This document shows positions 2-42,016 of a stretch of 44,054 bases of DNA, in pieces; within the stretch, counting starts at the first letter, position 1, and each line of letters begins with the position of its first letter. A program made the position numbers and the translations under genes. The stretch is from NCBI GenBank assembly GCA_035505015.1, contig DATJRF010000093.1, positions 1-44,054 of the forward strand, written 5' to 3'. Source of the DNA: Verrucomicrobiia bacterium (GTDB taxonomy: Bacteria; Vulcanimicrobiota; Vulcanimicrobiia; Vulcanimicrobiales; Vulcanimicrobiaceae). The notes under the pieces are model-generated. The model did no database searches. It had not been told where the DNA came from and saw nothing but the letters and a program-made list of their open reading frames with translations.

Positions 2-2695
2 CAAGACGGCCACTTCTCCGACTTCTTCTCGTTCCGCTCGACGCGCTCTGCCCCCGAGTACGCGCCTTACGGCGTCGACGTCTCGCAGATCGGCCAGTAC
101 TACGGCACGTCGTTCAACTACGACGACGACGTGCTCAATAATTTCTACTACCGTTTCGGCAAGAACGAGACGCAGCAGATTCAAGTTCTCACCGACTGGC
201 TGGATCATCGCGCCTGGGCCAACGCCGGCGGCATCGAGTATGCGAACTACTACCCGTACGATCCGTTCTCTCAAGCGTACTTCACGAGCGACTACAACTC
301 CAACCCGATGTGGCCGTCGGCGCCGTCGATCTGCCGCGGCAATCCGACCTGTGCGGGCGACAAGTGGGGAGCCTCGTGGTACGACTCGGTCATTCCGTAC
401 TATCAAGGCGTTCCCCAGGTCTTTCGCAGCCCCTCGCAGCCCGAGCAGTACGTCTACGGCCCCACCAACTTTCTCAAGATCGGCTACACGCGGCCGCTCG
501 GTAACAACACGTCGTTCAACTCGTTTTTCTACAACTGGGGCGGACTCGTCGCCAATAACGTGACCGGTTCGTCCTCCGATCTTACGCTCGGATCCTACCT
601 TCCCGGCTACAACAACGCCGGCGGAAGAAAGGTCGGATTCCAGGGTCAAGCCACGACCGTAGCAAGCGATAAACATACGCTTACCGTCGTCGCTAAGTTC
701 GAGAACGGGTTCCCCTACTGGGATCAGCTCAACTACGGCAATACCTGGCAGGGCTTTCTCGGCGGCCGCAGCGAGGACGAGGCGGTCGCTCAAACGCCCT
801 GCGTCTACAACCCGCAAACCGGCGAGGATACCGTCACGCCTACCTGCTACCAGCCGACCGGGCCGCGCATCGAAGACTGGTATCTTCCGATCGACCCGGG
901 CCAGCCGGTGAGCGCGAGCAACCCGTGCATCGGCCCGGCGCTCGATAACGGCTACAACGCCAAAGATCCGACGGGGGAAGGCTGTTACATCTACAGCTGG
1001 ATGCTCGCGCACGGCGACTGGCACGGCAAGCTTCCCGCGATCCCGTCGACCGGGTTCGACTACATGGGCAGCGACTTCCAGCAATACGGCGTCGGCCTGC
1101 GCGATCAGTATACGCCGAGCGACCGGCTGTCGTTTGACTACGGCGTTCGTCTGGACGGACAGAATCTCAAGTGGGCCGGCAATACCGCGCTCAACAAAGA
1201 CTTGAGCAATACGGCCGACATCGGAACCGGCTATGCGACCCTCTCCAACAGCTACCTCTATCCGCAGGTTATCGAGCCGCGCATTGCCGCCAGCTACCTG
1301 CTCGGCCAGAGCGACAGCGTTCGCGCCAGTTTCGGCCGCTCCGCGAGCTTTTTCTTCGGGCAAACGGCCGGGACGCCGACCAACATCGGCGACGTCAACC
1401 CGATTCTCTGGATGATTCCCTCCAAAGACGCGGGCGATCCGACCTACGACGCGCTCAACGGCGAGGGCCCCACCTGCGGCAGCGGCTGGCACCCGCCGGG
1501 GGAGGGGCTCAACGGGCTGTACGTTCCCAATCCAAACGTCTACTGGTCGGGCGACGGGAGCGTCGGAACCGTGGGGAATTACTTTCGGTGCGATAACTAC
1601 GCGCAGTCCGTCTATTGGGCGTTCGATCAAGCCTACGCGGCGCCGGACATCGGCGGTCAGACCGTCGCGACGTACAACAACTTCGATCTAGCCTGGAGCC
1701 ACCAGTTTCACAGCGGCTGGGGAACGAAACTGACCGGCTACTATCGTCGCGGATACGACACCTATCAAACGGTGCTGCTCAACGCGGGCCCGCCCGACCC
1801 GGTAACGGGCCAACAGACCGCCGGCTCCTTCCAAGAGCGCCAGACAGGTACCACCGAAACCTACGGCATCGAGTTCATGATGACGACCCCGGATCGTCCC
1901 AGCGGCTGGGGCGGCTTCCTCACGGTCAACTACGTCAACGCGCTCACGACGACTCCCCCCGTCTCCAACTCCGACAGCCTCCCCGCCGTCGCGCAGTATC
2001 TCTACCAAACCGGCGCGCTCTTCCACGCGGCGTACCTGCCGCCGCTCTCGGCGGTGGCGGGCATTCAGTACAAGACGCGTTCGGGGATAACGATTAATCC
2101 GATTCTTACCGCTAACGACGGCATTCCGTTCGGCGTCGGCACCACGACCTACGGCTTCGTCAACGGCGTGCTCTATCAAATTCCCACCGGGAACATCGGC
2201 CAGAGCCTCCCCTTCGCCGGCCCCGGGCAGCCGCTGCAGTCTTATAACGCGCTGTGTTACGTCGATCCGGCGTTTCCCGGCAGCATCTTCCATCCCAAAG
2301 ACTACGCGTGCCGCGGAGACAAAGAATCCACGCTCGCAGGCCAAACGCTCACGTCGCCGACGGCAAACCTCGACTTGAGCCTGCAGTACCAGCACCGCGG
2401 CATCACCTACGGTGCCTACGTCAGTAATATTTTCAACAACTACCGCAGCGAACCGGGCGTCAACCAGGACTGGCAGCCGGTCGCAACGGGGGTCGGCGGC
2501 GCGCAGACCGGCGAGTATGCCGGCACGTACCCGTACTTGCTCTCCGGGGGAAAGCTCGTTCCCAACCCGCTCTATCAAGCCGGAGGTCGCAACGAGCCGG
2601 CGTTCAACCAATCGTGGTTACCCTATCCGCAGCTCTACGTGCCGGGCACGACGATTCGCGGATACGTTCAGTTTGCGCTCGGAAGAGCGCCTTAG
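2..2695 (+). CDS. Outer-membrane beta-barrel protein, TonB-dependent-receptor-like (5' end outside the window)
   Basis: The reading frame is open from base 2, and there is no start codon before GTG 131. Barrel-like strand motifs are present (LSFDYGVRLDGQ, ETYGIEFMMT, GAYVSNIFNNYR, and YVQF near the C-terminus). Confidence 0.5.
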   Translation, partial: QDGHFSDFFSFRSTRSAPEYAPYGVDVSQIGQYYGTSFNYDDDVLNNFYYRFGKNETQQIQVLTDWLDHRAWANAGGIEYANYYPYDPFSQAYFTSDYNSNPMWPSAPSICRGNPTCAGDKWGASWYDSVIPYYQGVPQVFRSPSQPEQYVYGPTNFLKIGYTRPLGNNTSFNSFFYNWGGLVANNVTGSSSDLTLGSYLPGYNNAGGRKVGFQGQATTVASDKHTLTVVAKFENGFPYWDQLNYGNTWQGFLGGRSEDEAVAQTPCVYNPQTGEDTVTPTCYQPTGPRIEDWYLPIDPGQPVSASNPCIGPALDNGYNAKDPTGEGCYIYSWMLAHGDWHGKLPAIPSTGFDYMGSDFQQYGVGLRDQYTPSDRLSFDYGVRLDGQNLKWAGNTALNKDLSNTADIGTGYATLSNSYLYPQVIEPRIAASYLLGQSDSVRASFGRSASFFFGQTAGTPTNIGDVNPILWMIPSKDAGDPTYDALNGEGPTCGSGWHPPGEGLNGLYVPNPNVYWSGDGSVGTVGNYFRCDNYAQSVYWAFDQAYAAPDIGGQTVATYNNFDLAWSHQFHSGWGTKLTGYYRRGYDTYQTVLLNAGPPDPVTGQQTAGSFQERQTGTTETYGIEFMMTTPDRPSGWGGFLTVNYVNALTTTPPVSNSDSLPAVAQYLYQTGALFHAAYLPPLSAVAGIQYKTRSGITINPILTANDGIPFGVGTTTYGFVNGVLYQIPTGNIGQSLPFAGPGQPLQSYNALCYVDPAFPGSIFHPKDYACRGDKESTLAGQTLTSPTANLDLSLQYQHRGITYGAYVSNIFNNYRSEPGVNQDWQPVATGVGGAQTGEYAGTYPYLLSGGKLVPNPLYQAGGRNEPAFNQSWLPYPQLYVPGTTIRGYVQFALGRAP

Positions 2696-34180: not shown

Positions 34181-34498
34181 TCACATGGGGCTGCACGAGA
34201 CGATGGCCGTGTAGCTCCATAAGAACGTCGCCAGAACCAGCGCGAGCAGCGCAACGGCACCGATGACGATCGCCCGAGCCCACCCCTGGGCGAACGCAGC
34301 CGCCAGGGGCGCCACGAGGAGATAGACGGTCAGCACCGTTGCCGCTCGCGGTGCCCAATCGTAGCAGTGGTAAGGCGCCAACGGCCGGCCGGCGAGGCCG
34401 AGAACCCGCACCACCGCGCCCAAAGCCGCACCCGCCAGCGCGAGGCCGTACGCACTCAGAACGCCTAGGACGCGGCCTCTGGGCTCAGCAGCGCTCAT
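34181..34498 (-). CDS. Small integral membrane protein
   Basis: ATG 34498. There are three hydrophobic segments (VLGVLSAYGLALAGAALGAVV, VLTVYLLVAPLAAAF, IVIGAVALLALVLATFLW). Confidence 0.5.
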   Translation of the reverse strand: MSAAEPRGRVLGVLSAYGLALAGAALGAVVRVLGLAGRPLAPYHCYDWAPRAATVLTVYLLVAPLAAAFAQGWARAIVIGAVALLALVLATFLWSYTAIVSCSPM

Positions 34499-34945: not shown

Positions 34946-35019
34946 GGGCCATTAGCTCAGCTGGTTAGAGCGCATGCTTGATAAGCATGAGGTCCCTGGT
35001 TCGAACCCAGGATGGCCCA
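34946..35019 (+). tRNA. tRNA-Ile (anticodon GAU)
   Basis: I folded the cloverleaf by hand. The acceptor stem is GGGCCAT/ATGGCCC, the D arm GCTC/GAGC, the anticodon stem CATGC/GCATG with loop TTGATAA, and the T arm CCTGG-TTCGAAC-CCAGG. The discriminator is A. No CCA is encoded. Confidence 0.95.
34978..35019 (+). repeat. Direct repeat copy 1 (attL-like): the 3' 42 nt of tRNA-Ile
   Basis: It is identical to 39358-39399 at 41 of 42 positions. The only difference is A 35005 versus G 39385. Confidence 0.9.
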
Positions 35020-35025
35020 GTATCG

Positions 35026-35052
35026 AAAACCCTTGCACCGCAAGGGTTTTTT
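35026..35052 (+). terminator. Intrinsic terminator after tRNA-Ile
   Basis: An 11-bp stem AAAACCCTTGC/GCAAGGGTTTT has a 3-nt loop and runs into a T tract. Confidence 0.8.
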
Positions 35053-35203
35053 GTTTGCCCCGCCTTGGCGGCGGTCCGCCGTAGCTGGCGGTTAACCCAC
35101 TTTCTAACGCAGGTAACTCACCTGCGAGCAGCGCTCCCATAGTCGCTTCGCCGCAAAATACGTAGCTGGACTGCCGAGCGACATTGATCCTAGAATGCTC
35201 GGA

Positions 35204-35389
35204 CTACTGGACGCCGTTTTGGGCGAAGTGGGAGGGTGGCAACGTGACTTTGTCGTTCCGCGCGCGGCCGAGCACCAACAGGACCGAGTCATTGAGGACT
35301 TCGACCGCGTCGGCGTAAGGATCAACGTCGAAGGCGTCTATTTCATGAAGGCCGCGGGACCAGCGCCCGACGCAAACTTCTTTATCGAT
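35204..35389 (-). pseudogene. Start-less 61-codon gene fragment of unknown family
   Basis: The minus-strand frame reads IDKEVCVGRWSRGLHEIDAFDVDPYADAVEVLNDSVLLVLGRARNDKVTLPPSHFAQNGVQ. It opens directly after a stop that abuts the tRNA-like fragment, and it has no start codon. Confidence 0.3.
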
Positions 35390-35396
35390 CTAAAGC

Positions 35397-35424
35397 GGCC
35401 CCTGGTTCGAACCCAGGACGGCCC
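35397..35424 (+). repeat. Third, shorter tRNA-3'-end-like fragment (T arm plus acceptor)
   Basis: GGCCCCTGGTTCGAACCCAGGACGGCCC compared with tRNA GGTCCCTGGTTCGAACCCAGGATGGCCC shows 2 mismatches in 28 nt. Confidence 0.7.
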
Positions 35425-35439
35425 CCACAACTATCGGGG

Positions 35440-37362
35440 CTACCAGATGATGATGACGGAACCGTTGCCGGCCTGGGTACCGTTCGTCGTCGTCACGTTC
35501 GTCGCGCCCGTTATGTAATACGAGGACCCGCCGCCGCCACCGCCGCCCGCGATTCCATCGCTTGCGCCGCCTCCGCCTCCGCCCCAGTAACCGCCGCCTC
35601 CGCCGCCGCCCCCGGATCCTACGCCGCTGCAACTGCTCACGCACGTCGCGCCGACGCCCCCGTTTCCGCTGGTTCCCGCGCTCCCGTTCGTGGTTCCGAC
35701 CGATCCGTCGCCGCCCGGTCCGCCGCCAGATTGGGTTCCGCCGCCGCCGCCGCTCCCGCTTCCGGAGCCCGGACACGTACCGCCATCTTCCCCGGTGGGG
35801 TAGCCCCCGTAGCCGCCGTAGGGCTGGCCGGACGTCCCGCAGTTATCGGCGCCCCCGCCCCCTCCGGCGCCGAGGACCAGGAGAACGCCGCCTTGGGCGA
35901 CGCTCGATGCGCCGCCGCCGCCGCTGCCGACGTTGATCGCCGCGCCGTAGCCCCCGGCGGCGCCGCCATTGAATCCGCCCGATCCGGCCGTACTTGACGT
36001 TCCCTGCTGGCCCTGCCCGCCGGTGAGGACATCCAGGCTCCCTGCCGCAACCGGGACGGTCGCTTGCACGGTACCGCCGTCGCCGCCTGGGCCGGAGCTC
36101 GTGCCGCACGACGTGTCGCACCCTGCGGCGCCTTGCGCCCCTGCGGCGTTCACGGTGACCAGCGTGACGCCCGCGGGAACCGTTATCGACTGCGTCGAGC
36201 CCGTGTACCCGAAGTTCGTGTACGCGAGCGTCACCGCTTGGCTCTGGCCTAAACCGTCACTCAACGTCAAAGCCGTGCAGGTGCCGGGTGACGGGACCGA
36301 TGCGACGCTCGCGGTGAATGAATTGCCGCTCCGTAATACCGTGCCGATGCTCCCGCAGCCGCTGCCGTTGGTTACGGTGAGCGATTTGCTATATGGCGCA
36401 TTGGTCCAGCCGGCTTCCGATGTGGTAAACGTGCCACTCGACCCCGCGCCGGTCGTAGCGTACAAATCCACGCCCGCGAAGGACGGATTGAGCGTGTCGC
36501 TCGTCGTGACGACGATCGGCTGCAAGGCCGGCGCGAACTGCGCGCTGCCGTTCGTCGCGCCGCTCGCGCGCGCCGTAATGGTTACCGGCAAGATGGCGAG
36601 GCCGGTGTAGCTCAACTTCGCGGTATCGCTCGAACTGAGCAGTTGCCCGGCCGGCGGACTATCGCTGCCCGACGTCGCGATGCTCGTCGCGCCGCTGGCG
36701 TCGTCGTCGCTCAGCGTCACCGCGTTGTCGTACGCGCCGACGATCGTGTCGCCGTCCGCATCTTTCGCGCTAACCGTAAACGCTTGCGACGACGCGAACG
36801 GCGTGCCGGCCGTTCCGCTCGGCAAGCCGCTAACGACGAGCGATGCGACGACGCCATCGAGCGTGAAGCCGATGTCGTTGGTGATTCCGCCCTTCATCGT
36901 AAACGGCACGTTATTTGCCGTCGACAACAGCTTGGCGCCGGCGGGGATGCTGCCGCTTACCGGCGCCTTGTCGTAGGTTTTGATGGTGACGGTGTAGCTA
37001 CCGGCAAGCAGCGTCACCGCGATGGTACAGGTCAACGGCGATCCCGTGCATCGCGGATCGCTTGGCGTGAGGTTGACCACTTGGGTCGTCGTCGACGGCC
37101 CGGTAAAGGCCATGGTCATTCCCTTGGTTGCCGCCGAAATATAGCGCGGCGCTCTCCCGCGGGGGCCCTTTGGGATTCGGATGTGGATCCTAAGCGCCCC
37201 TTTACGCCGACGTTTTTCAGCAATCGTCGAGGGATGCGCGCGCGCAGGCGCGGCGCTCGCATCGCTCGATGCGGGCAACGACGAACTCCGCTCGCCCGCA
37301 CTCGCGCATCCCGCCAGCAGACCGACCGCACAGAGGGTCGCAATCGTGCGCCGTACATCCAT
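35440..37362 (-). CDS. Lipoprotein with Ig-like middle region and a C-terminal glycine-rich (polyglycine, ALK-like GRD-type) domain
   Basis: The lipobox is AVGLLAGC. The C-terminal ~260 aa begin FGYTGSTQSITVPAGVTLVTVNAAGAQG, contain GGGGGGGGYWGGGGGG and GGGGGGGSSYYITG, and end GNGSVIIIW. Confidence 0.75.
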   Translation of the reverse strand: MDVRRTIATLCAVGLLAGCASAGERSSSLPASSDASAAPARAHPSTIAEKRRRKGALRIHIRIPKGPRGRAPRYISAATKGMTMAFTGPSTTTQVVNLTPSDPRCTGSPLTCTIAVTLLAGSYTVTIKTYDKAPVSGSIPAGAKLLSTANNVPFTMKGGITNDIGFTLDGVVASLVVSGLPSGTAGTPFASSQAFTVSAKDADGDTIVGAYDNAVTLSDDDASGATSIATSGSDSPPAGQLLSSSDTAKLSYTGLAILPVTITARASGATNGSAQFAPALQPIVVTTSDTLNPSFAGVDLYATTGAGSSGTFTTSEAGWTNAPYSKSLTVTNGSGCGSIGTVLRSGNSFTASVASVPSPGTCTALTLSDGLGQSQAVTLAYTNFGYTGSTQSITVPAGVTLVTVNAAGAQGAAGCDTSCGTSSGPGGDGGTVQATVPVAAGSLDVLTGGQGQQGTSSTAGSGGFNGGAAGGYGAAINVGSGGGGASSVAQGGVLLVLGAGGGGGADNCGTSGQPYGGYGGYPTGEDGGTCPGSGSGSGGGGGTQSGGGPGGDGSVGTTNGSAGTSGNGGVGATCVSSCSGVGSGGGGGGGGYWGGGGGGASDGIAGGGGGGGSSYYITGATNVTTTNGTQAGNGSVIIIW

Positions 37363-37364
37363 CG

Positions 37365-38948
37365 TTAGTGAACCCCGACGTTTCCGAGCGTGACCTCAAC
37401 GTTCACCACGAGCGTTCTGCCCGCGGCGTCCGAAAAAGTCGCACTGCACTTCGCTATGTTGCCGCTCGTGCCGGCATTCTTGGCTTTGACCGTAAACGAA
37501 GAAGCACTCTGGCCAACACCCGGCGCGAACGCAGCCCAGTTGCCGCCCGCCGCCGGATCGTCAGTTTTGTTACAGGTATCGCTCTTGAGCGTGAAGTTCG
37601 GCGCGTGCGACCACTTGGGAGCGCTCGGCGTCAAGGTCGCGGTATCGCCGACGGCGGTGAACTGTACCGAGCCCGGGGAAGTCGCGCTTCCGTCTACGCA
37701 TGCGTCGGCTTTCTGCGCGCAGACGACGGCGATCACCGGCACGGGTAAGGTGACCGAGATCGGAAGCGACGCGGAGCTGCCGATGCCCGCGATCTTCGCG
37801 GTGCACGAGCCGGGCCCGGTGGCCGTCACCGTATAGGTCGCCTTGCCGCCGCTATTCTTCGAAGCGCTTAGCGTCGCAACGTTCCCACAGTTGTCGCTCT
37901 CGTCGAACGAGCCGGTGTAGTTGGCCTGCTTTGCGGTGACAGTTTTCGTGCTGGACGAACTTACGGCCGTGAAGCTCAGGCTGCCGGGCGAGAGCACGAC
38001 GCTGCCGAACACCGAGATCGGCAGCGACGCCGACTCACGGTCACCGCCGGTGAACGTCGCGTTACACGATCCCGCAGCCACCGGCGTGACCGTGTAACTC
38101 GCGCTACCACTGCCGTTGGCGGTCGCAGCCAGCGTTGCGATCTTCGCGCAATCGTCGCTTTCGGTAAAGCTCCCGGTGTACTTGGCTTGCGTCACGGCGA
38201 CCGTCTTGCTGTTTGCCGACCCGGTCGCGCTGAAGCTCAGGCTCGAGGGCTTCAGCACGACGCCGCCGAGCGCCACGACCGAGATCGGCAGCGACGCCGA
38301 CTCGCCGTCCCCACCCATGAACGTTGCCTTACACGATCCTGCCCCCACCGGCGTGACCGAATATTTCCCGTCGCCGCCTCCGTTTCGATCGGCTGCCAGC
38401 GTCGCGATCTTCGTACAATCGTCGCGCTCGGAGAACGTCCCTCCGTATGAGCCCTGCGCGATTCGAACGTCCTGCGCGTACGAGGAACCGATCGCCGTGA
38501 ACTTCAGGCTCGACGGCGACAGGAGAATGGAGCCGGTCTTCGGGACGTTCTCGACCTGCAAGGCTGCCGAGGTGACGATCGCGCCTCCCGCGCCGCTTAC
38601 GGAAATCGATGCCGATCCCGGCCCGGCCACAATGACGTACGCCTTGCCGTTGGCGCTCACCAGCGTCTGCTTTCCGTGCGCTTCGCGTGCGTTAGGCGAC
38701 ATGACCGCCGGCAACGCCGATGAAAGCCTCAACACGGCACGATCCGTCGATGTGTACGTGAACGGTCCCGTATACGCGCCCTGACTCGCCTCCACGCGCG
38801 CAACGTCACCGACGTAGTGCAGCTTACCGGTGACGTGCACCGATAGCGGCGCGCGTGACGCGGGCGGAATACTAGCCGGCGTGCATGATGTGAAAAGGGC
38901 CGCCAACAATGTGGCAGCAAGCCATCTCAATGCCAATCGACAGACCAC
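37365..38948 (-). CDS. Lipoprotein made of tandem ~87-aa two-cysteine Ig-like repeats
   Basis: GTG 38948 has GGAG 7 nt upstream. The lipobox is ALFTSC. There are three clear repeats (aa 139-227, 228-314, 315-402) flanked by degenerate copies. The stop lies 2 nt before the start of the next gene. Confidence 0.75.
   Translation of the reverse strand: MVCRLALRWLAATLLAALFTSCTPASIPPASRAPLSVHVTGKLHYVGDVARVEASQGAYTGPFTYTSTDRAVLRLSSALPAVMSPNAREAHGKQTLVSANGKAYVIVAGPGSASISVSGAGGAIVTSAALQVENVPKTGSILLSPSSLKFTAIGSSYAQDVRIAQGSYGGTFSERDDCTKIATLAADRNGGGDGKYSVTPVGAGSCKATFMGGDGESASLPISVVALGGVVLKPSSLSFSATGSANSKTVAVTQAKYTGSFTESDDCAKIATLAATANGSGSASYTVTPVAAGSCNATFTGGDRESASLPISVFGSVVLSPGSLSFTAVSSSSTKTVTAKQANYTGSFDESDNCGNVATLSASKNSGGKATYTVTATGPGSCTAKIAGIGSSASLPISVTLPVPVIAVVCAQKADACVDGSATSPGSVQFTAVGDTATLTPSAPKWSHAPNFTLKSDTCNKTDDPAAGGNWAAFAPGVGQSASSFTVKAKNAGTSGNIAKCSATFSDAAGRTLVVNVEVTLGNVGVH
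37743..38534 (-). repeat. Three tandem ~260-bp coding repeats
   Basis: The DNA-level similarity is visible by eye, for example ...GCTCAGGCT...CACGACGC.GCCGA...GAGATCGGCAGCGACGCCGACTC...TTACACGATCC.GC..CCACCGGCGTGACCG recurring with a ~260-nt period. Confidence 0.8.
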
Positions 38949-39214
38949 GGGCTAACTCCAATGCTTTGTTGCGGGCGGGCGCTCGAGCGATCTCCTTTAA
39001 CTTAACGTATCGGCCCCCGTCAAGCAAGCAGCCACCTGCGTGCCGCATTCGCGCCAAGTTTAGTCCAAGCGCGATTAGAGGTCATCTCATAAATCCCCGT
39101 GCGTGGATTTCGGGGTGCGATGTCACCTTGGCGTCGGGCCACGCCGCGCTCTTCGCCCCGAAAGGCCGCGTCCACCGCGTAGCGGGAAGCTTTTTTTCGG
39201 GTCCACGCTCGTGA
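38909..39214 (+). pseudogene. Degenerate tyrosine-recombinase (integrase) C-terminal remnant
   Basis: 39056-39181 encodes KFSPSAIRGHLINPRAWISGCDVTLASGHAALFAPKGRVHRV. This parallels the XerC/integrase C-terminus (K-L-S-P-H-x-L-R-H...G-x-D-L...LLGHAxL...Y-T-H). The catalytic His, His and Tyr positions are substituted. Confidence 0.4.
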
Positions 39215-39357
39215 TGGCAGCGTTCGCCACCTACCTCGGCGCGGTCGTTCCGCGGCGCTCGGGTTTATCCCACTAATCCCGACTTTGTCTGCGACCGGAA
39301 GCTCCACAAATCCTTATTTTGCGCGCCTCTTGCTATGCGGCACAGGCTTCCGGCCCT

Positions 39358-39399
39358 TTGATAAGCATGAGGTCCCTGGTTCGAGCCCAGGATGGCCCA
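39358..39399 (+). repeat. Direct repeat copy 2 (attR-like): displaced 3' part of tRNA-Ile followed by CCA
   Basis: It matches tRNA positions 33-74. The upstream sequence does not match the tRNA 5' half. CCA is at 39400-39402. Confidence 0.9.
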
Positions 39400-39406
39400 C
39401 CAACTC

Positions 39407-39431
39407 AAAGCCCATAACCACGGGTTTTTTT
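39407..39431 (+). terminator. Terminator-like hairpin plus T tract after the displaced tRNA 3' end
   Basis: A 7-bp stem AAAGCCC/GGGTTTT (with one G-U pair) has an 8-nt loop and is followed by TTTTT. Confidence 0.45.
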
Positions 39432-39454
39432 CATCCCCGGTGAACCCCTAGCAA

Positions 39455-39566
39455 GGGGAGCCTAAGATGCTGGGGAGCCTACTCGGGAGCCTATTTCCAT
39501 GGGAGGCCGCGCGCGCGCGCAGCGTATTCGTGGCGGCTCCCTCGCGCGCGCGCGTACGCGTATACG
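39455..39566 (+). repeat. Iteron-like GGGAGCC(TA) repeats and alternating Py-Pu tracts
   Basis: GGGAGCCTA occurs at 39456, 39473 and 39485. A degenerate copy is at 39501 and an inverted copy, GCGGCTCCC, at 39533-39541. A (CG)n run spans 39508-39520, and a 24-nt perfect Py-Pu alternation spans 39543-39566. Confidence 0.7.
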
Positions 39567-39577
39567 AGACCACATGA

Positions 39578-39880
39578 CGACTCGAACCGCAACGCCCGGC
39601 ACTCGGCGGCAACGGCCAAGGCGAAGGCGGCCCGGCTAACGGGCCGGGCTGGGGTGGTCCGGCTCGGGGCGCATCCCGGAAGCCGCCGCGTGCTCCGTTA
39701 CAGAAGGCCGGGCCGGGCCGCGGCAACTTCTCCATCACCGGCGAGGAAAGGCGTGCGCGGAACGAACGCCACGCTGACGAGATGCGCGAACTATACTACG
39801 AAATCGCGCACGATACCGCGCGGCCAGCAATGGTTCGCCTCAATGCGGCGACTCATCTTCTGAACCGCATCGACTGCCGT
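39578..39880 (+). pseudogene. Phage small-terminase-like / Gly-rich N-terminal phage protein remnant lacking a start
   Basis: The frame opens after TGA 39575 and reads GGNGQGEGGPANGPGWGGPARGASRKPPRAPLQKAGPGRGNFSITGEERRARNERHADEMRELYYEIAHDTARPAMVRLNAATHLLNRID. The first canonical start (ATG 39782) lies inside the conserved part. The end coordinate is approximate. Confidence 0.4.
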
Positions 39881-40241
39881 TACGACGCTCGAGTACAGCA
39901 CGTCGAATATTGGACTGCCGTTCTGCCATTCGTGGCGGTGGGGCATCCGTTTGCGTCTTCGCAAAGCGACCATCATCGAGAAGCCACTGACCGTCTGGCG
40001 CCTCCGTCAAAGCCCACCACCCCTCGTAGTGGCTATGAACACTCTTGCCATTAATCAGATCAATCGCGTCGAGAGCAACGTGCAACTTGTGCGCGTTGCC
40101 CGGGATTTCCACAACGCTCGCATGTACGGATGGCGAGAGCAGGCTCCAGGCGGTCCTAAACTCTTTGCGGCTGATTGCGTCGTAAAAAGCCATCACGACA
40201 CGCGCCGGCCTATCCGCACGCATCTCCTTCCGCGACGTCAT
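39840..40241 (-). CDS. Small hypothetical protein, translationally coupled to the sulfatase gene
   Basis: ATG 40241-40239 shares one base with the sulfatase TGA (40243-40241). The product contains VVMAFYDAISRKEFRTAWSLLSP...YEGWWALTEAPDGQWLLDDGRF. Confidence 0.5.
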   Translation of the reverse strand: MTSRKEMRADRPARVVMAFYDAISRKEFRTAWSLLSPSVHASVVEIPGNAHKLHVALDAIDLINGKSVHSHYEGWWALTEAPDGQWLLDDGRFAKTQTDAPPPRMAERQSNIRRAVLERRNGSRCGSEDESPH

Positions 40242-42016
40242 CAACCCGGAGGCAGTTCGTTTTTTCCTTCGAGGATCGGCTCGAGAAACCGGCCGTCGTT
40301 GACCCCTACCTCGGCCGCAATGAGATCGTTGAGCAACGCATTCATGCCAAGGATGGTCTCGCGATGCGCTTTGGGCTCGACCGCCAAGTTATGCACCTCG
40401 TGAGGGTCGCTTTGGAGGTCGAAAAGCTGCACGTCGTTGTTCTTTAGGATTTCCTCCATCGTTCGCGGGGTATTGAATCCGGTCGGCGCATAGTAGCGAC
40501 CAAACTTGTATCGCCCGTCGAACGCGAAGGAAACAAGGCCGCGCTTCGTTAGGTTTGCCTGGCTGATGGGAGGCTGAGGCGAGTTCAACATCTGCGAATC
40601 CATAACGCTCTGCAGATATCGAGCGTCGACCGTGGCAAGGCCCAAGTAGTTGAAGAGCACGCCCGGGCGCACCGCATCGAGCTTGGCTTCGCTTGGGTTC
40701 GCCAGCAATCCCGAGAAGTCGCGTCCCGGCAGCGCTCTGGCATCGGCGGGGCGCTGCGATTCGGGCAGGCCCGTCAGGCCAACGAACGTGGGGACCAAGT
40801 CTAAGTGACTGGTGAGCGCAGCGCACGTGGCACCGGCCGGCCCCGCGGGATGGGCTATGACCATCGGCACGTGCGCGTTCTGCTCGTAGATGAACGGCCC
40901 CTTGCCCTTTAAGCCGCCGTGGGAACCACCCATCTCGCCGTGATCGGCCGTGAAAACGATCACCGTGTCGCGCCACAAATCCATTTCGTCGAAGACGTCG
41001 ACTACTTGCTTTACGTTCCGTTCGTTATCCTGAATCGTATTCAAGTAGTAGTTGTAGAATATCGTCCACATATCGGTCCGGTCGGTCGGGATCGAACCGG
41101 ACCAGCCGTCCCAGCCCTTTCGATACTCGTCGAGGGCGCCCGGCATCCCCTCGGACGTCAGCGATTCCGCAAGGCTCTCCGGCAGCGTTAGCGGCCATTT
41201 CCGCTCGTAGATCGAGTTCGGCGGCGGGGGCGGCGTCGCATCCGCAGTCACGGGCTTTTGAACCGGCGGTTCGCCCGGAACGTTACCGTCGCCGTACATG
41301 ATGTCGTGCGGATTCACGAAGCTCGCGACCATGAAGAACGGCCTCCCGCCGCTCTTGCGCGATTGCAGGGCGGCGTTGCGAAGCCAGCGCACGCTTTCGC
41401 CGGCGATGAACGGATCGTTCTCGAAGCCGCTGAGAGGAGCGCTCCCGATATCTCCGCCCGCGCCGAACACGTCAAAACCGTAGGCCTGCGCGGCGGTGCT
41501 GTAGTTGACGGTCGGCTCGGGATTGAGTATCCCCTTGTCCATTTCGAACTTGCCGAAATACGCGGTTTTATATCCCAGCTCTTTTAGTACCGATCCGACG
41601 TTTGGGATGCTCGGATTGAGCGTCGGCACGAAGGCAAATTGCTGCTGATCGATAACGTGATGATACTGCGGCGGCCGGCCGGTTAAAAACGTCGCCCGCG
41701 ACGGCGTGCACATCGCCGAGGCCGTGTAGTGATTTGCAAACGTAACGCCGTTTCGTGCAATCCGGTCCGTCCCCGGCAGCGAATACTCCGGGCCGCCATG
41801 GAGTTTATGCGTCTGCTGGTCGACGATGATGAAGACGATATTATAGGGCGGCTTTCCCGGCGGCCCCTTACGCGCCGGCGTTCCGCTCTCGGCCTGCGCG
41901 GGCGCACCTTGCGCGGCACCCGGCAAACTCGATCCCAGCGCGGCTGCCGCGAGCGTCGATGCGCCCAACAGAGCTTCGCGACGATTGACCGTGCCTTTGG
42001 AATCGTCTCTCTTCAT
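40241..42016 (-). CDS. Sulfatase (formylglycine-dependent, Cys-type) with a Tat signal
   Basis: ATG 42016 gives MKRDDSKGTVNRREALLGASTLAAAAL, a Tat-like signal. The sulfatase signature is CTPSRATFLTGR, with DQQTHK and TADHGE blocks. Confidence 0.85.
   Translation of the reverse strand: MKRDDSKGTVNRREALLGASTLAAAALGSSLPGAAQGAPAQAESGTPARKGPPGKPPYNIVFIIVDQQTHKLHGGPEYSLPGTDRIARNGVTFANHYTASAMCTPSRATFLTGRPPQYHHVIDQQQFAFVPTLNPSIPNVGSVLKELGYKTAYFGKFEMDKGILNPEPTVNYSTAAQAYGFDVFGAGGDIGSAPLSGFENDPFIAGESVRWLRNAALQSRKSGGRPFFMVASFVNPHDIMYGDGNVPGEPPVQKPVTADATPPPPPNSIYERKWPLTLPESLAESLTSEGMPGALDEYRKGWDGWSGSIPTDRTDMWTIFYNYYLNTIQDNERNVKQVVDVFDEMDLWRDTVIVFTADHGEMGGSHGGLKGKGPFIYEQNAHVPMVIAHPAGPAGATCAALTSHLDLVPTFVGLTGLPESQRPADARALPGRDFSGLLANPSEAKLDAVRPGVLFNYLGLATVDARYLQSVMDSQMLNSPQPPISQANLTKRGLVSFAFDGRYKFGRYYAPTGFNTPRTMEEILKNNDVQLFDLQSDPHEVHNLAVEPKAHRETILGMNALLNDLIAAEVGVNDGRFLEPILEGKNELPPG

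Follow-up and report, generated by a model that had tools for sequence, protein, structure and literature searches.

In actinomycete elements such as pSAM2 and in P4-type islands, a tyrosine integrase gene directly adjoins an att site whose sequence overlaps the 3' part of a tRNA gene; integration restores the tRNA. The integration target of ICESt1 and ICESt3 is fda. A regenerated tRNA gene (tDNA) and a displaced fragment of it mark the two ends of a genomic island, and anticodon-centred (class A) sites form a recognised category among them (PMC4383910). Decay to a CIME and accretion in tandem are likewise documented processes, described for elements related to ICESt1 and ICESt3 of Streptococcus thermophilus (Pavlovic 2004 and Bellanger 2011, as summarised in PMC5704250).

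The stretch of DNA analysed here (44,054 nucleotides, hereafter the window) comes from an uncultured soil bacterium of the Baltobacteraceae (Eremiobacterota). We consider it probable, at roughly 75%, that decayed integrative elements stand in a tandem array at a hot-spot tRNA-Ile(GAU) gene of the window (Table 1). The tRNA was called by both programs that were applied (as tRNA-Ile(GAT) by ARAGORN; 72.7 bits with Rfam). Directly 3' of it stands GTA instead of CCA; among 54 relatives CCA is encoded at this tRNA in 46 and absent in 8. The strong hairpin and T-run that follow (35025-35057, z = -3.96) complete the picture of a CCA-less tRNA-Ile with its terminator that a first-pass annotation of this DNA had drawn. 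The flank in which they lie belongs to the same sequence family, TATCGGAAAAG...TTTTTGTTTGC, as the integrase-linked flanks of three related loci (L029, L038 and L093).

The 42-mer formed by tRNA nt 33-74 occurs twice in the window, where chance would give 0 occurrences. The distal copy (39358-39399) is identical at 41/42 positions, the sole mismatch being an A to G change in the T loop, and the identity sets in at T33, where the anticodon loop begins. Behind it follow CCA and a weak hairpin with a T7 run (-7.6 kcal/mol, z = -1.8). The 32 nt upstream of this copy match tRNA nt 1-32 at only 6/32 positions, so that the 5' half of the tRNA is not duplicated, and neither ARAGORN nor Rfam calls a tRNA at the fragment. 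The distal 3' copy with its T-loop mismatch, its CCA and its weaker hairpin, and the missing 5' half, had all been annotated before and were found again here. The same is true of a third tRNA-like fragment, which comprises the T arm and the acceptor 3' strand (26/28 match, 35397-35424). Its acceptor strand, ACGGCCC, pairs with GGGCCGT and not with the GGGCCAT of this genome; among the relatives, 40 have the GGGCCGT/ACGGCCC type and 14 the GGGCCAT/ATGGCCC type. The structure is composite, with three att-like sites of which the middle one carries a foreign acceptor-stem type. We also considered encoded CCA as a marker of the native end, and rejected it as unreliable because in locus L011 it is the regenerated gene that has CCA, not the displaced fragment, and both copies in L093 are without it.

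Table 1. Features of the tRNA-Ile islet and its flanks, in window coordinates
Feature	Position	Strand	Basis or remark
Intact tRNA-Ile(GAU), no encoded CCA	34946-35019	+	ARAGORN, Rfam RF00005
tRNA nt 33-74, proximal attL-like repeat copy	34978-35019	+	
Junction flank with strong hairpin and T-run	35020-35057	.	folds on both strands: -16.2 (+) and -14.8 (-) kcal/mol
Relic segment, no recognisable gene	35058-35396	.	no Pfam or family-HMM match, no homologue in 80 loci
Middle tRNA-Ile fragment (28 nt) followed by CCA	35397-35427	+	acceptor strand ACGGCCC
Putatively transferable two-gene module	35434-39036	-	extent of blastn homology
Cargo gene 2, 640-aa predicted lipoprotein	35440-37362	-	signal peptide ending LLAGC, Gly-rich C-terminal region
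Cargo gene 1, 527-aa predicted lipoprotein	37365-38948	-	three ~88-aa repeats (261-267-nt period)
Unique non-coding spacer, module to distal repeat	39037-39357	.	best family-HMM E = 1.5 at 38875-39081 (-)
Distal copy of tRNA-Ile nt 33-74 with CCA	39358-39402	+	attR-like, or internal att site of a longer array
Distal flank with weak, apparently decayed terminator	39403-39440	+	33/43 to internal-fragment flank of L016/L091
Three exact GGGAGCCTA copies within 38 nt	39456-39493	+	the only exact copies in the window

Set against 80 related genomes or loci of Eremiobacterota (Baltobacteraceae), the locus falls into a wider pattern. The order fabH-yceD, SLT-p109-p85, tRNA-Ile is conserved across the 80 loci, and what lies downstream is hypervariable, differing in all 54 relatives that carry the tRNA. 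When near-identical loci are counted once, 3' fragments that start at tRNA nt 31-33, within the anticodon loop, occur in six other loci (L011, L016, L055, L074, L091 and L093). The full pattern of tRNA, integrase relic, 3.1 kb of DNA and fragment is seen in L093. Tyrosine integrases with a PF00589 domain are present in L038 and L016, and an integrase sits at the tRNA-Ile locus in 5/5 contexts examined (L016, L038, L089, L090/L091/L092 and L093), in all five convergent on the tRNA 3' end or on a fragment, with an ORF that runs into the terminator and the tRNA. This integrase family is rare, with 10 proteins (P0001-P0010), mostly relics, among 5.8 billion; a search with the N-terminal domain for intact, full-length members returned only the L089 and L093 copies in the database. 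Taken together, these comparisons mark tRNA-Ile(GAU) as a family-wide integration hot spot in Baltobacteraceae. The recurrent breakpoint at nt 31-33, the dedicated integrases and the hypervariable downstream DNA also uphold the core of the first-pass annotation, a decayed site-specific integration into the 3' part of the tRNA gene that has no integrase left.

The integrase-less islets at this tRNA in the window, L011, L055, L074, L016/L091 and L093 measure 0.7-4.4 kb, hold 1-3 genes and have well-preserved att repeats of ~42-47 nt (L055 has a 28-nt fragment). One may speculate that the tRNA-Ile gene serves as a cassette-exchange platform, at which islets would be more than debris, being captured, shuffled and moved in trans by the locus-dedicated tyrosine recombinase. 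In function it would resemble an integron, with a tRNA gene as its base; we think such a platform quite improbable.

An empty tRNA-Ile site had been proposed as a check, and one was found across species only: in L056 a gene stands directly after the tRNA, and in L011 that gene comes behind the displaced fragment, 0.7 kb farther along. No empty site came from the same species or a close relative. When JGI metagenome contigs were scanned with exact patterns, the promoter-tRNA junction and the distal junction both gave 0 matches, and an exact-protein look-up of the 109-aa neighbour returned two contigs only, with the same arrangement or too short. The arrangement itself is reproduced, with 10 scattered SNPs over 13.9 kb, in an independent ENA contig from another sample (L001). 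The window does come from a metagenome assembly, and the duplication could in principle have been created there; given the agreement between samples and a 42-nt repeat that is shorter than typical assembly k-mers, we regard the chance of such an artefact as negligible.

As had been annotated, no intact integrase lies between the repeats, where we found only two lipoprotein genes and non-coding DNA. A degenerate recombinase C terminus had also been read as pointing at the attR-like repeat, and this we could not recover. Pfam gave no match in four of the six frames of 38940-39360 and nothing in the translated frames of 35020-35445 and 39400-40260, and an HMM of the locus family (12 members), run on the six-frame ORFs of the whole window, reached E = 0.7-1.5 at best; no integrase relic was detectable in 39400-40300. 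Matches of 20-24 aa by tblastn at 38989-39060 (-), with E = 0.03-2, were rejected as not significant, including that of P0009 in the spacer (E = 0.03 over 24 aa), which does not withstand correction for multiple queries. In addition, the known integrases of the PF00589 locus family adjoin the tRNA 3' end in convergent orientation and are not aimed at the 5' edge of a distal fragment. Beside the intact tRNA, a weak resemblance to the C-terminal tail of the L038-type integrase ORF is found at 35024-35146 (-) (tblastn E = 0.005 for a window-sized search space), and alignment of the DNA shows that the shared part is essentially the ~37-nt terminator, which leaves a weak hint only. The start-less gene fragment annotated in this region did not hold up either, the sole ORF there (35195-35518) having no homologue in the 80 related loci. 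When the spacer upstream of the distal repeat was compared with those of L011, L055, L074, L091 and L093, none scored above shuffled controls. A viral origin was considered and rejected: the integrase has only distant relatives in IMG/VR and the 640-aa cargo protein has none, and by Pfam the two cargo genes show no sign of the phage structural, lysis or replication genes expected of a prophage remnant.

The two cargo genes form an operon with a 2-nt gap, and their lipoprotein signal peptides bear out the earlier description of a two-gene operon of large lipoproteins on the minus strand. The 640-aa protein shares 86% identity with its homologue in L094 and 49% with the one in L016/L091, which adjoins an integrase. 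Pfam detects PF12810 in the L091 homologue (8e-18), finds no match in the 640-aa protein of the window and no phage domain in either cargo gene; an exact look-up of the 640-aa protein found no record. At the DNA level, homology of the module sets in 6 nt beyond the stop codon of the 640-aa gene, and at the other end it reaches 88 nt into the DNA upstream of the 527-aa start. By blastn the module matches L094 at 87.5% and 81% and L097 at 82.9%, and the right boundary coincides in the two, whereas the syntenic core is only 76.9% identical to that of the same L094/L065 genome, a difference which suggests that the module was horizontally transferred between lineages. The GC content of the cargo is host-like, as had been stated, and this counts against the integration reading. 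A search for homologues of the cargo beside tRNA genes or integrases gave a divided answer: the 49%-identical homologue does lie beside an integrase (L016/L090-L092), but five other contigs (L094, L096, L097, L098 and L099) carry the module as a chromosomal two-gene unit in ordinary contexts, with no tRNA, fragment or integrase nearby. Delivery of the module by an integrative element is what we infer; given these ordinary contexts and the gene-tight boundaries of homology, it could have entered the array by another route.

The general mechanism of integration is established, and we infer that it operated in this window. According to this model, a tyrosine integrase would have recombined the attP of an element (tRNA-Ile nt ~31/33-74) with the chromosomal gene, with the crossover within the anticodon loop. 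The tRNA would then be rebuilt from the host 5' half and a 3' half brought in by the element, in this case lacking CCA and followed by the terminator of the element, and the earlier 3' half would be pushed to the far side of the insert. At least two integration events, or one together with a rearrangement, would account for the three att-like sites, the middle one having drawn its acceptor strand from a foreign tRNA-Ile type. The integrase genes would later have been lost through deletion, leaving between the sites ~380 bp of relic DNA and the two-gene surface-lipoprotein module.

How far the array extends depends on the distal fragment, which had been taken as the displaced original 3' end of the host gene. 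This is not established, for its flank, which has a sulfatase gene further to the right, resembles that of the internal L016/L091 fragment, which runs into a convergent integrase (39400-39440, 33/43 identical, in register), and the array may therefore continue rightward. The distal fragment would then be an att site inside the array, forming the left junction with another, older element, and the true right end of the island would lie further right, possibly beyond the contig, so that the islet described here would be no more than the inner portion of a larger composite island. The ~840 nt without a called gene (39403-40240), the three clustered GGGAGCCTA repeats therein, which may be arm-type sites of a recombinase, and the last base, 44054, which the two independent contigs share, fit such an extension. 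However, one in 30 shuffles equalled the score of the flank alignment, the distal hairpin resembles also the terminator after tRNA-Ile in L069, 39400-40300 has no detectable integrase relic, and a 61% homologue of the sulfatase stands downstream of tRNA-Ile in L051, suggesting that the sulfatase represents the ancestral flank. We thus hold the extension to be possible, if doubtful. A different view is that the fragments are old scars and that the module is no element cargo at all, having come in at a later time through gene conversion from a paralogous copy on the chromosome or through recombination, illegitimate or homologous. The five ordinary contexts and the gene-tight boundaries speak for this, as does the orientation of the module relative to the tRNA fragments, which is opposite to that of the homologue in L016/L091. 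Yet the module sits exactly between two att-like sites, its homologue directly adjoins an integrase, and its lesser divergence than that of the core genome fits delivery by a mobile element, and later entry appears unlikely to us. Finally, the distal fragment could be what remains of a tandemly duplicated tRNA-Ile whose 5' half was deleted, with no mobile element involved. A weak similarity that does not stop with the tRNA but extends into the terminator (78% over 74 nt) is in line with this, but none of the relatives (0/54) has two complete tRNA-Ile genes at the locus, integrases sit at the fragments, and random deletion would not give a breakpoint shared with six other loci. This origin is very improbable, and a second, degraded tRNA-Ile gene at the distal site is largely refuted by the lack of a 5'-half remnant and of any tRNA call.

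The tandem array of decayed elements favoured here adds one more case, in a poorly studied uncultured phylum, to the rule, long known, that mobile DNA uses tRNA genes as landing pads. It is a scar of an ordinary type, left by an already known kind of process, and opens no new question. What it contributes is an integration site common to many Baltobacteraceae species and served by a dedicated, rare integrase, and a surface-lipoprotein pair that apparently passes from lineage to lineage by way of this site, or into it. This should help in annotating Eremiobacterota MAGs, in placing island boundaries and in understanding how the gene content of the cell surface varies.

Among the described systems, pSAM2 and the P4-type islands are matched by the locus integrase family, which also lies immediately beside an att site overlapping the 3' part of the tRNA. 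The family differs from theirs in being known from only ~10 contigs and in its convergent orientation, with the ORF entering the terminator and the tRNA, and no xis, rep or tra genes were seen with it. The tDNA islands catalogued by Islander (Hudson, Lau & Williams 2015, PMC4383910; classes of Williams 2002) share with the window an intact tRNA and a cognate, displaced 3' fragment in the same orientation, a canonical crossover sublocation in the anticodon loop (class A) and the occurrence of tandem arrays at one tDNA. The window differs in that it is very small (4.4 kb), has three sites, one of them truncated to the T arm, and holds no integrase gene (PF00589) between tDNA and fragment, for which reason it would fail the Islander integrase filter. 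A further parallel is with CIMEs of the ICESt1/ICESt3 type. The window target is a tRNA gene in Eremiobacterota as opposed to the 3' end of a protein-coding gene in Firmicutes, and no conjugative or mobilisable parent element, nor a transfer module, has been identified in Eremiobacterota. As in those CIMEs, the tandem structure is consistent with successive site-specific integrations, attL and attR are kept and the genes for integration, excision and transfer are absent, while integrase-bearing relatives use the same site in other genomes (L038, L089 and L093). Since the contig has no integrase, the islet cannot move on its own; a cognate integrase acting in trans would still find a substrate in the outer pair of sites (42 nt, 41/42 identical, anticodon loop intact), which makes the element CIME-like. 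We judge the islet to be a composite, integrase-less, CIME-like integration relic.

The window holds one tRNA gene on which ARAGORN and Rfam agree, a tRNA-Ile(GAT), and nucleotides 33-74 of this gene occur exactly twice, at 34978-35019 within the intact gene and again in a distal copy with a single mismatch, in the T loop; no such match is expected by chance. Directly 3' of the intact gene stands GTA, not CCA, and the hairpin and T-run that follow form a good fold on either strand (-16.2 and -14.8 kcal/mol). After the distal copy come CCA and a weaker hairpin with T7 (-7.6 kcal/mol); of the positions immediately preceding this copy, only 6/32 agree with the tRNA 5' half. Between the two copies lie a third, shorter fragment and two adjacent lipoprotein genes with a 2-nt gap. 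All of this agrees with the first-pass annotation. An assembly artefact as the source of the duplication is ruled out by L001, an independent ENA contig with the same arrangement (99.93% identical to the window across 13.9 kb, with 10 scattered SNPs). The window is a complete contig of 44,054 bp, and L001 (14,136 bp, from another sample and independently assembled) ends at its last base, 44054; this coincidence suggests that a repeat, or a junction that varies between strains, lies just past this position.

Table. Features of the window, and extent of the tRNA-Ile fragments at related loci
Feature	Position	Strand	Remarks
Small membrane-protein gene	34181-34498	-	between p109 and p85
Intact tRNA-Ile(GAT)	34946-35019	+	ARAGORN and Rfam, 72.7 bits
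Middle tRNA-Ile fragment	35397-35424		26/28 to T arm and acceptor 3' strand; CCA after
640-aa ORF	35440-37362	-	signal peptide ending LLAGC
527-aa ORF	37365-38948	-	three ~88-aa repeats
Distal tRNA-Ile copy	39358-39399
GGGAGCCTA repeats	39456-39493		three exact copies in 38 nt
L011 fragment	tRNA nt 33-74		0.7 kb from intact tRNA
L016 fragment	tRNA nt 31-74		2 kb from intact tRNA
L055 fragment	tRNA nt 32-59		0.7 kb from intact tRNA
L074 fragment	tRNA nt 32-74		2.5 kb from intact tRNA
L090/L091 fragment	tRNA nt 31-74		~2 kb from intact tRNA
L093 fragment	tRNA nt 32-74		3.1 kb from intact tRNA

With the SLT-domain protein encoded next door as query, a scan of GTDB species representatives yielded 80 loci, nearly all labelled Eremiobacterota/Vulcanimicrobiota (genus names given: Cybelea, Tumulicola). 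The left side is conserved among these relatives (fabD-fabH-rpmF-yceD, SLT-p109-p85, tRNA-Ile(GAT)); the DNA 3' of tRNA-Ile varies between species, and in many of them a tRNA-Ala(TGC)/tRNA-Ala(GGC) pair 1.4-8 kb away closes the variable stretch. CCA is encoded after tRNA-Ile in 46 of 54 tRNA-bearing relatives and absent in 8; the acceptor pair is GGGCCGT/ACGGCCC in 40 and GGGCCAT/ATGGCCC, the window's type, in 14.

Incomplete copies of the tRNA-Ile 3' part, oriented like the intact gene and lying downstream of it, occur at several other loci, and at the six listed in the Table every fragment starts where the anticodon loop begins on its 5' side. This start matches anticodon-centred attachment, a recognised class for tDNA islands (PMC4383910). 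A duplicate tRNA gene that was randomly deleted would not yield one breakpoint in so many species. At locus L056 a small gene (MRLRFGDRVTI...) and an S9 peptidase gene directly follow tRNA-Ile; at L011 the same genes come after the displaced fragment, with 0.7 kb of other DNA between it and the regenerated tRNA. The two loci are thus a cross-species empty/occupied pair. For the window's own species, exact-pattern scans of JGI metagenome contigs with the promoter-tRNA junction and with the distal junction gave no hits. The L011 islet contains two tandem small ORFs of similar sequence (L011:12031-12517, minus strand; MKQ.PDAK.QPGQEEASEISE.VLDELAAGTG.NGP.QP...), whose products resemble the precursor peptides from which a ribosomal natural product is made.

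Minus-strand tyrosine recombinase ORFs (PF00589) adjoin the L016 fragment (5.9e-11) and the L038 tRNA (4.5e-16). With the L038 integrase as query only 10 relatives were found among 5.8 billion proteins, and with the N-terminal domain only two matches. In 5/5 contexts examined (L016, L038, L089, L090/L091/L092 and L093) the integrase sits at this same chromosomal locus, convergent with the 3' end of either tRNA-Ile or a fragment, its ORF reading into the terminator and the tRNA. The complete pattern is seen in L093: tRNA lacking CCA, integrase relic, 3.1 kb, fragment. In L089 one frameshift lies between a SAM_3 domain ORF and a catalytic-domain ORF; since fabH and yceD are also split there, the integrase gene may in reality be intact. 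The called ORFs of P0001, P0002, P0004 and P0010, all family members, extend through the terminator, antisense into the tRNA (e.g. L089:6307-6963, ...WWAVLGSNRGPHAYQ), and tblastn is therefore spuriously strong on any tRNA-Ile, for example with E = 6e-17 for the window. At L026:17940-18611 (minus strand), immediately after tRNA-Ala(GGC), lies a tyrosine integrase that is more distant (26% identity to the one of L016), so the neighbouring tRNA-Ala may be a second integration target.

At the window's proximal junction, A|GTATCGAAAACCC...TTTTTTGTTTGC, the flank is of the family also found at L029, L038 and L093, and in the latter two this flank leads into the integrase. In the window, neither Pfam nor the family HMM detects an integrase beyond the proximal terminator. 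An integrase tail beside the intact tRNA is at most weakly hinted at, as the tblastn match (E = 0.005) mainly reflects the shared terminator. The first-pass annotation had placed a recombinase relic pointing at the attR-like distal repeat; this relic is undetectable by Pfam (four of six frames of 38940-39360), tblastn or the family HMM (all six frames of the window), and its geometry is the opposite of that seen in the locus's integrase family.

The acceptor strand of the middle fragment, ACGGCCC, is the partner of GGGCCGT; it does not pair with the GGGCCAT of the resident 5' half. Judged by this mismatch, the fragment was most likely brought in by an element whose source lineage has the other tRNA-Ile type. 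When the distal flank is compared in register with that of the L016/L091 internal fragment, which leads into an integrase, 33/43 positions are identical; the hairpin of the distal flank also resembles the terminator after the L069 tRNA-Ile, and ~840 nt to the right of the distal copy contain no called gene. The GGGAGCCTA repeats, which lie 55 nt to the right of the distal copy, have no further exact copies in the contig, and at the equivalent position the tandem motif of L016/L091 is another one, GTTACACCCCGA x2; such repeats may be arm-type recombinase sites. Taken together, flank, hairpin and the geneless, GGGAGCCTA-bearing stretch indicate that the distal fragment may be the native end or may lie inside a longer array as one of its sites.

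The cargo proteins, which have no significant Pfam match, are predicted to be secreted lipoproteins that carry Ig-like repeats and a Gly-rich domain. For the 527-aa protein 30 homologues were found, and where a source is named it is an Eremiobacterota or Acidoferrales MAG. In every context recovered, the next gene is either homologous to the 640-aa one or another large ORF, indicating a conserved two-gene module. Repeat number varies in this family, as P0011, the homologue at L094:10001-12676, has 891 aa (75% identical) and several more repeat copies. At L094, L096, L097, L098 and L099 the module stands in ordinary chromosomal surroundings, without tRNA, fragment or integrase; at L016/L090-L092 the integrase is directly adjoined by a gene whose product is 49% identical to the 640-aa protein and has an ALK/LTK-type glycine-rich domain (PF12810, 8e-18). 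Beyond this homologue, L090-L092 carry ArsR-type HTH_5 and MerT genes (e.g. L092:2261-3569), suggesting metal-resistance cargo on the island of the L016/L091 lineage.

L094 and locus L065 share a 3.92-Mb contig, on which L094 lies 2.6 Mb away from the tRNA-Ile of that genome. Window 35434-38424 is 87.5% identical to the L094 module at the DNA level (640-aa protein, 86%), compared with 76.9% over 7.5 kb of syntenic core in the same genome pair, an unusually high similarity for so distant a genome. That a fast-evolving surface module has diverged less than the genes for fatty-acid synthesis speaks for horizontal transfer, with paralogy as a caveat. The homology to L094 extends 6 nt beyond the stop codon, to a point 10 nt short of the middle fragment; on the other side it stops 88 nt ahead of the start codon, and this right boundary also holds against L097.

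The left flank shows variation of its own. In L004, L007, L012, L019, L020, L024, L031, L041, L049, L065 and L089, tRNA-Ile lies 1-9 kb downstream of p85, and these stretches, devoid of leftover tRNA 5' fragments, form a second variable region, upstream, which the 3'-end integration model leaves unexplained. The window's small membrane-protein gene has a homologue in just one of the 80 relatives, L044, located there ~1.5 kb downstream of p85; in the window the gene seems to be a lineage-specific insertion into a flank that is conserved otherwise. Just past fabD, L089:14410-16963 is a defence cluster with a DarT-Macro (DarTG-like) pair and type I restriction-modification genes (Methylase_S, HsdM_N). 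tRNA-Ile(GAU) and tRNA-Ala(UGC) usually sit in the 16S-23S spacer. Here (L003-L082) they lie a few kb apart, beside tRNA-Ala(GGC), and the window has no rRNA gene, the tRNA being its sole Rfam match.

The account with the best support is that tyrosine integrases repeatedly inserted elements, one after another, at the anticodon-loop site of tRNA-Ile, and that the integrases were afterwards deleted. The lipoprotein module would have arrived on such an element; the insertions would have preceded the deletions, and the outer att-like sites may still be competent for recombination. Textbooks already describe integration scars in tRNA genes, their tandem arrays and derivatives that lack an integrase; the kind of structure is known, and the phylum is under-studied. 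A family-wide hot spot, a very rare integrase dedicated to one locus and an apparent traffic of a surface-protein module add mildly to this. The outcome of such successive insertions would be an array resembling the CIME defined in PMC5704250, in the state reached after loss of its integrases.
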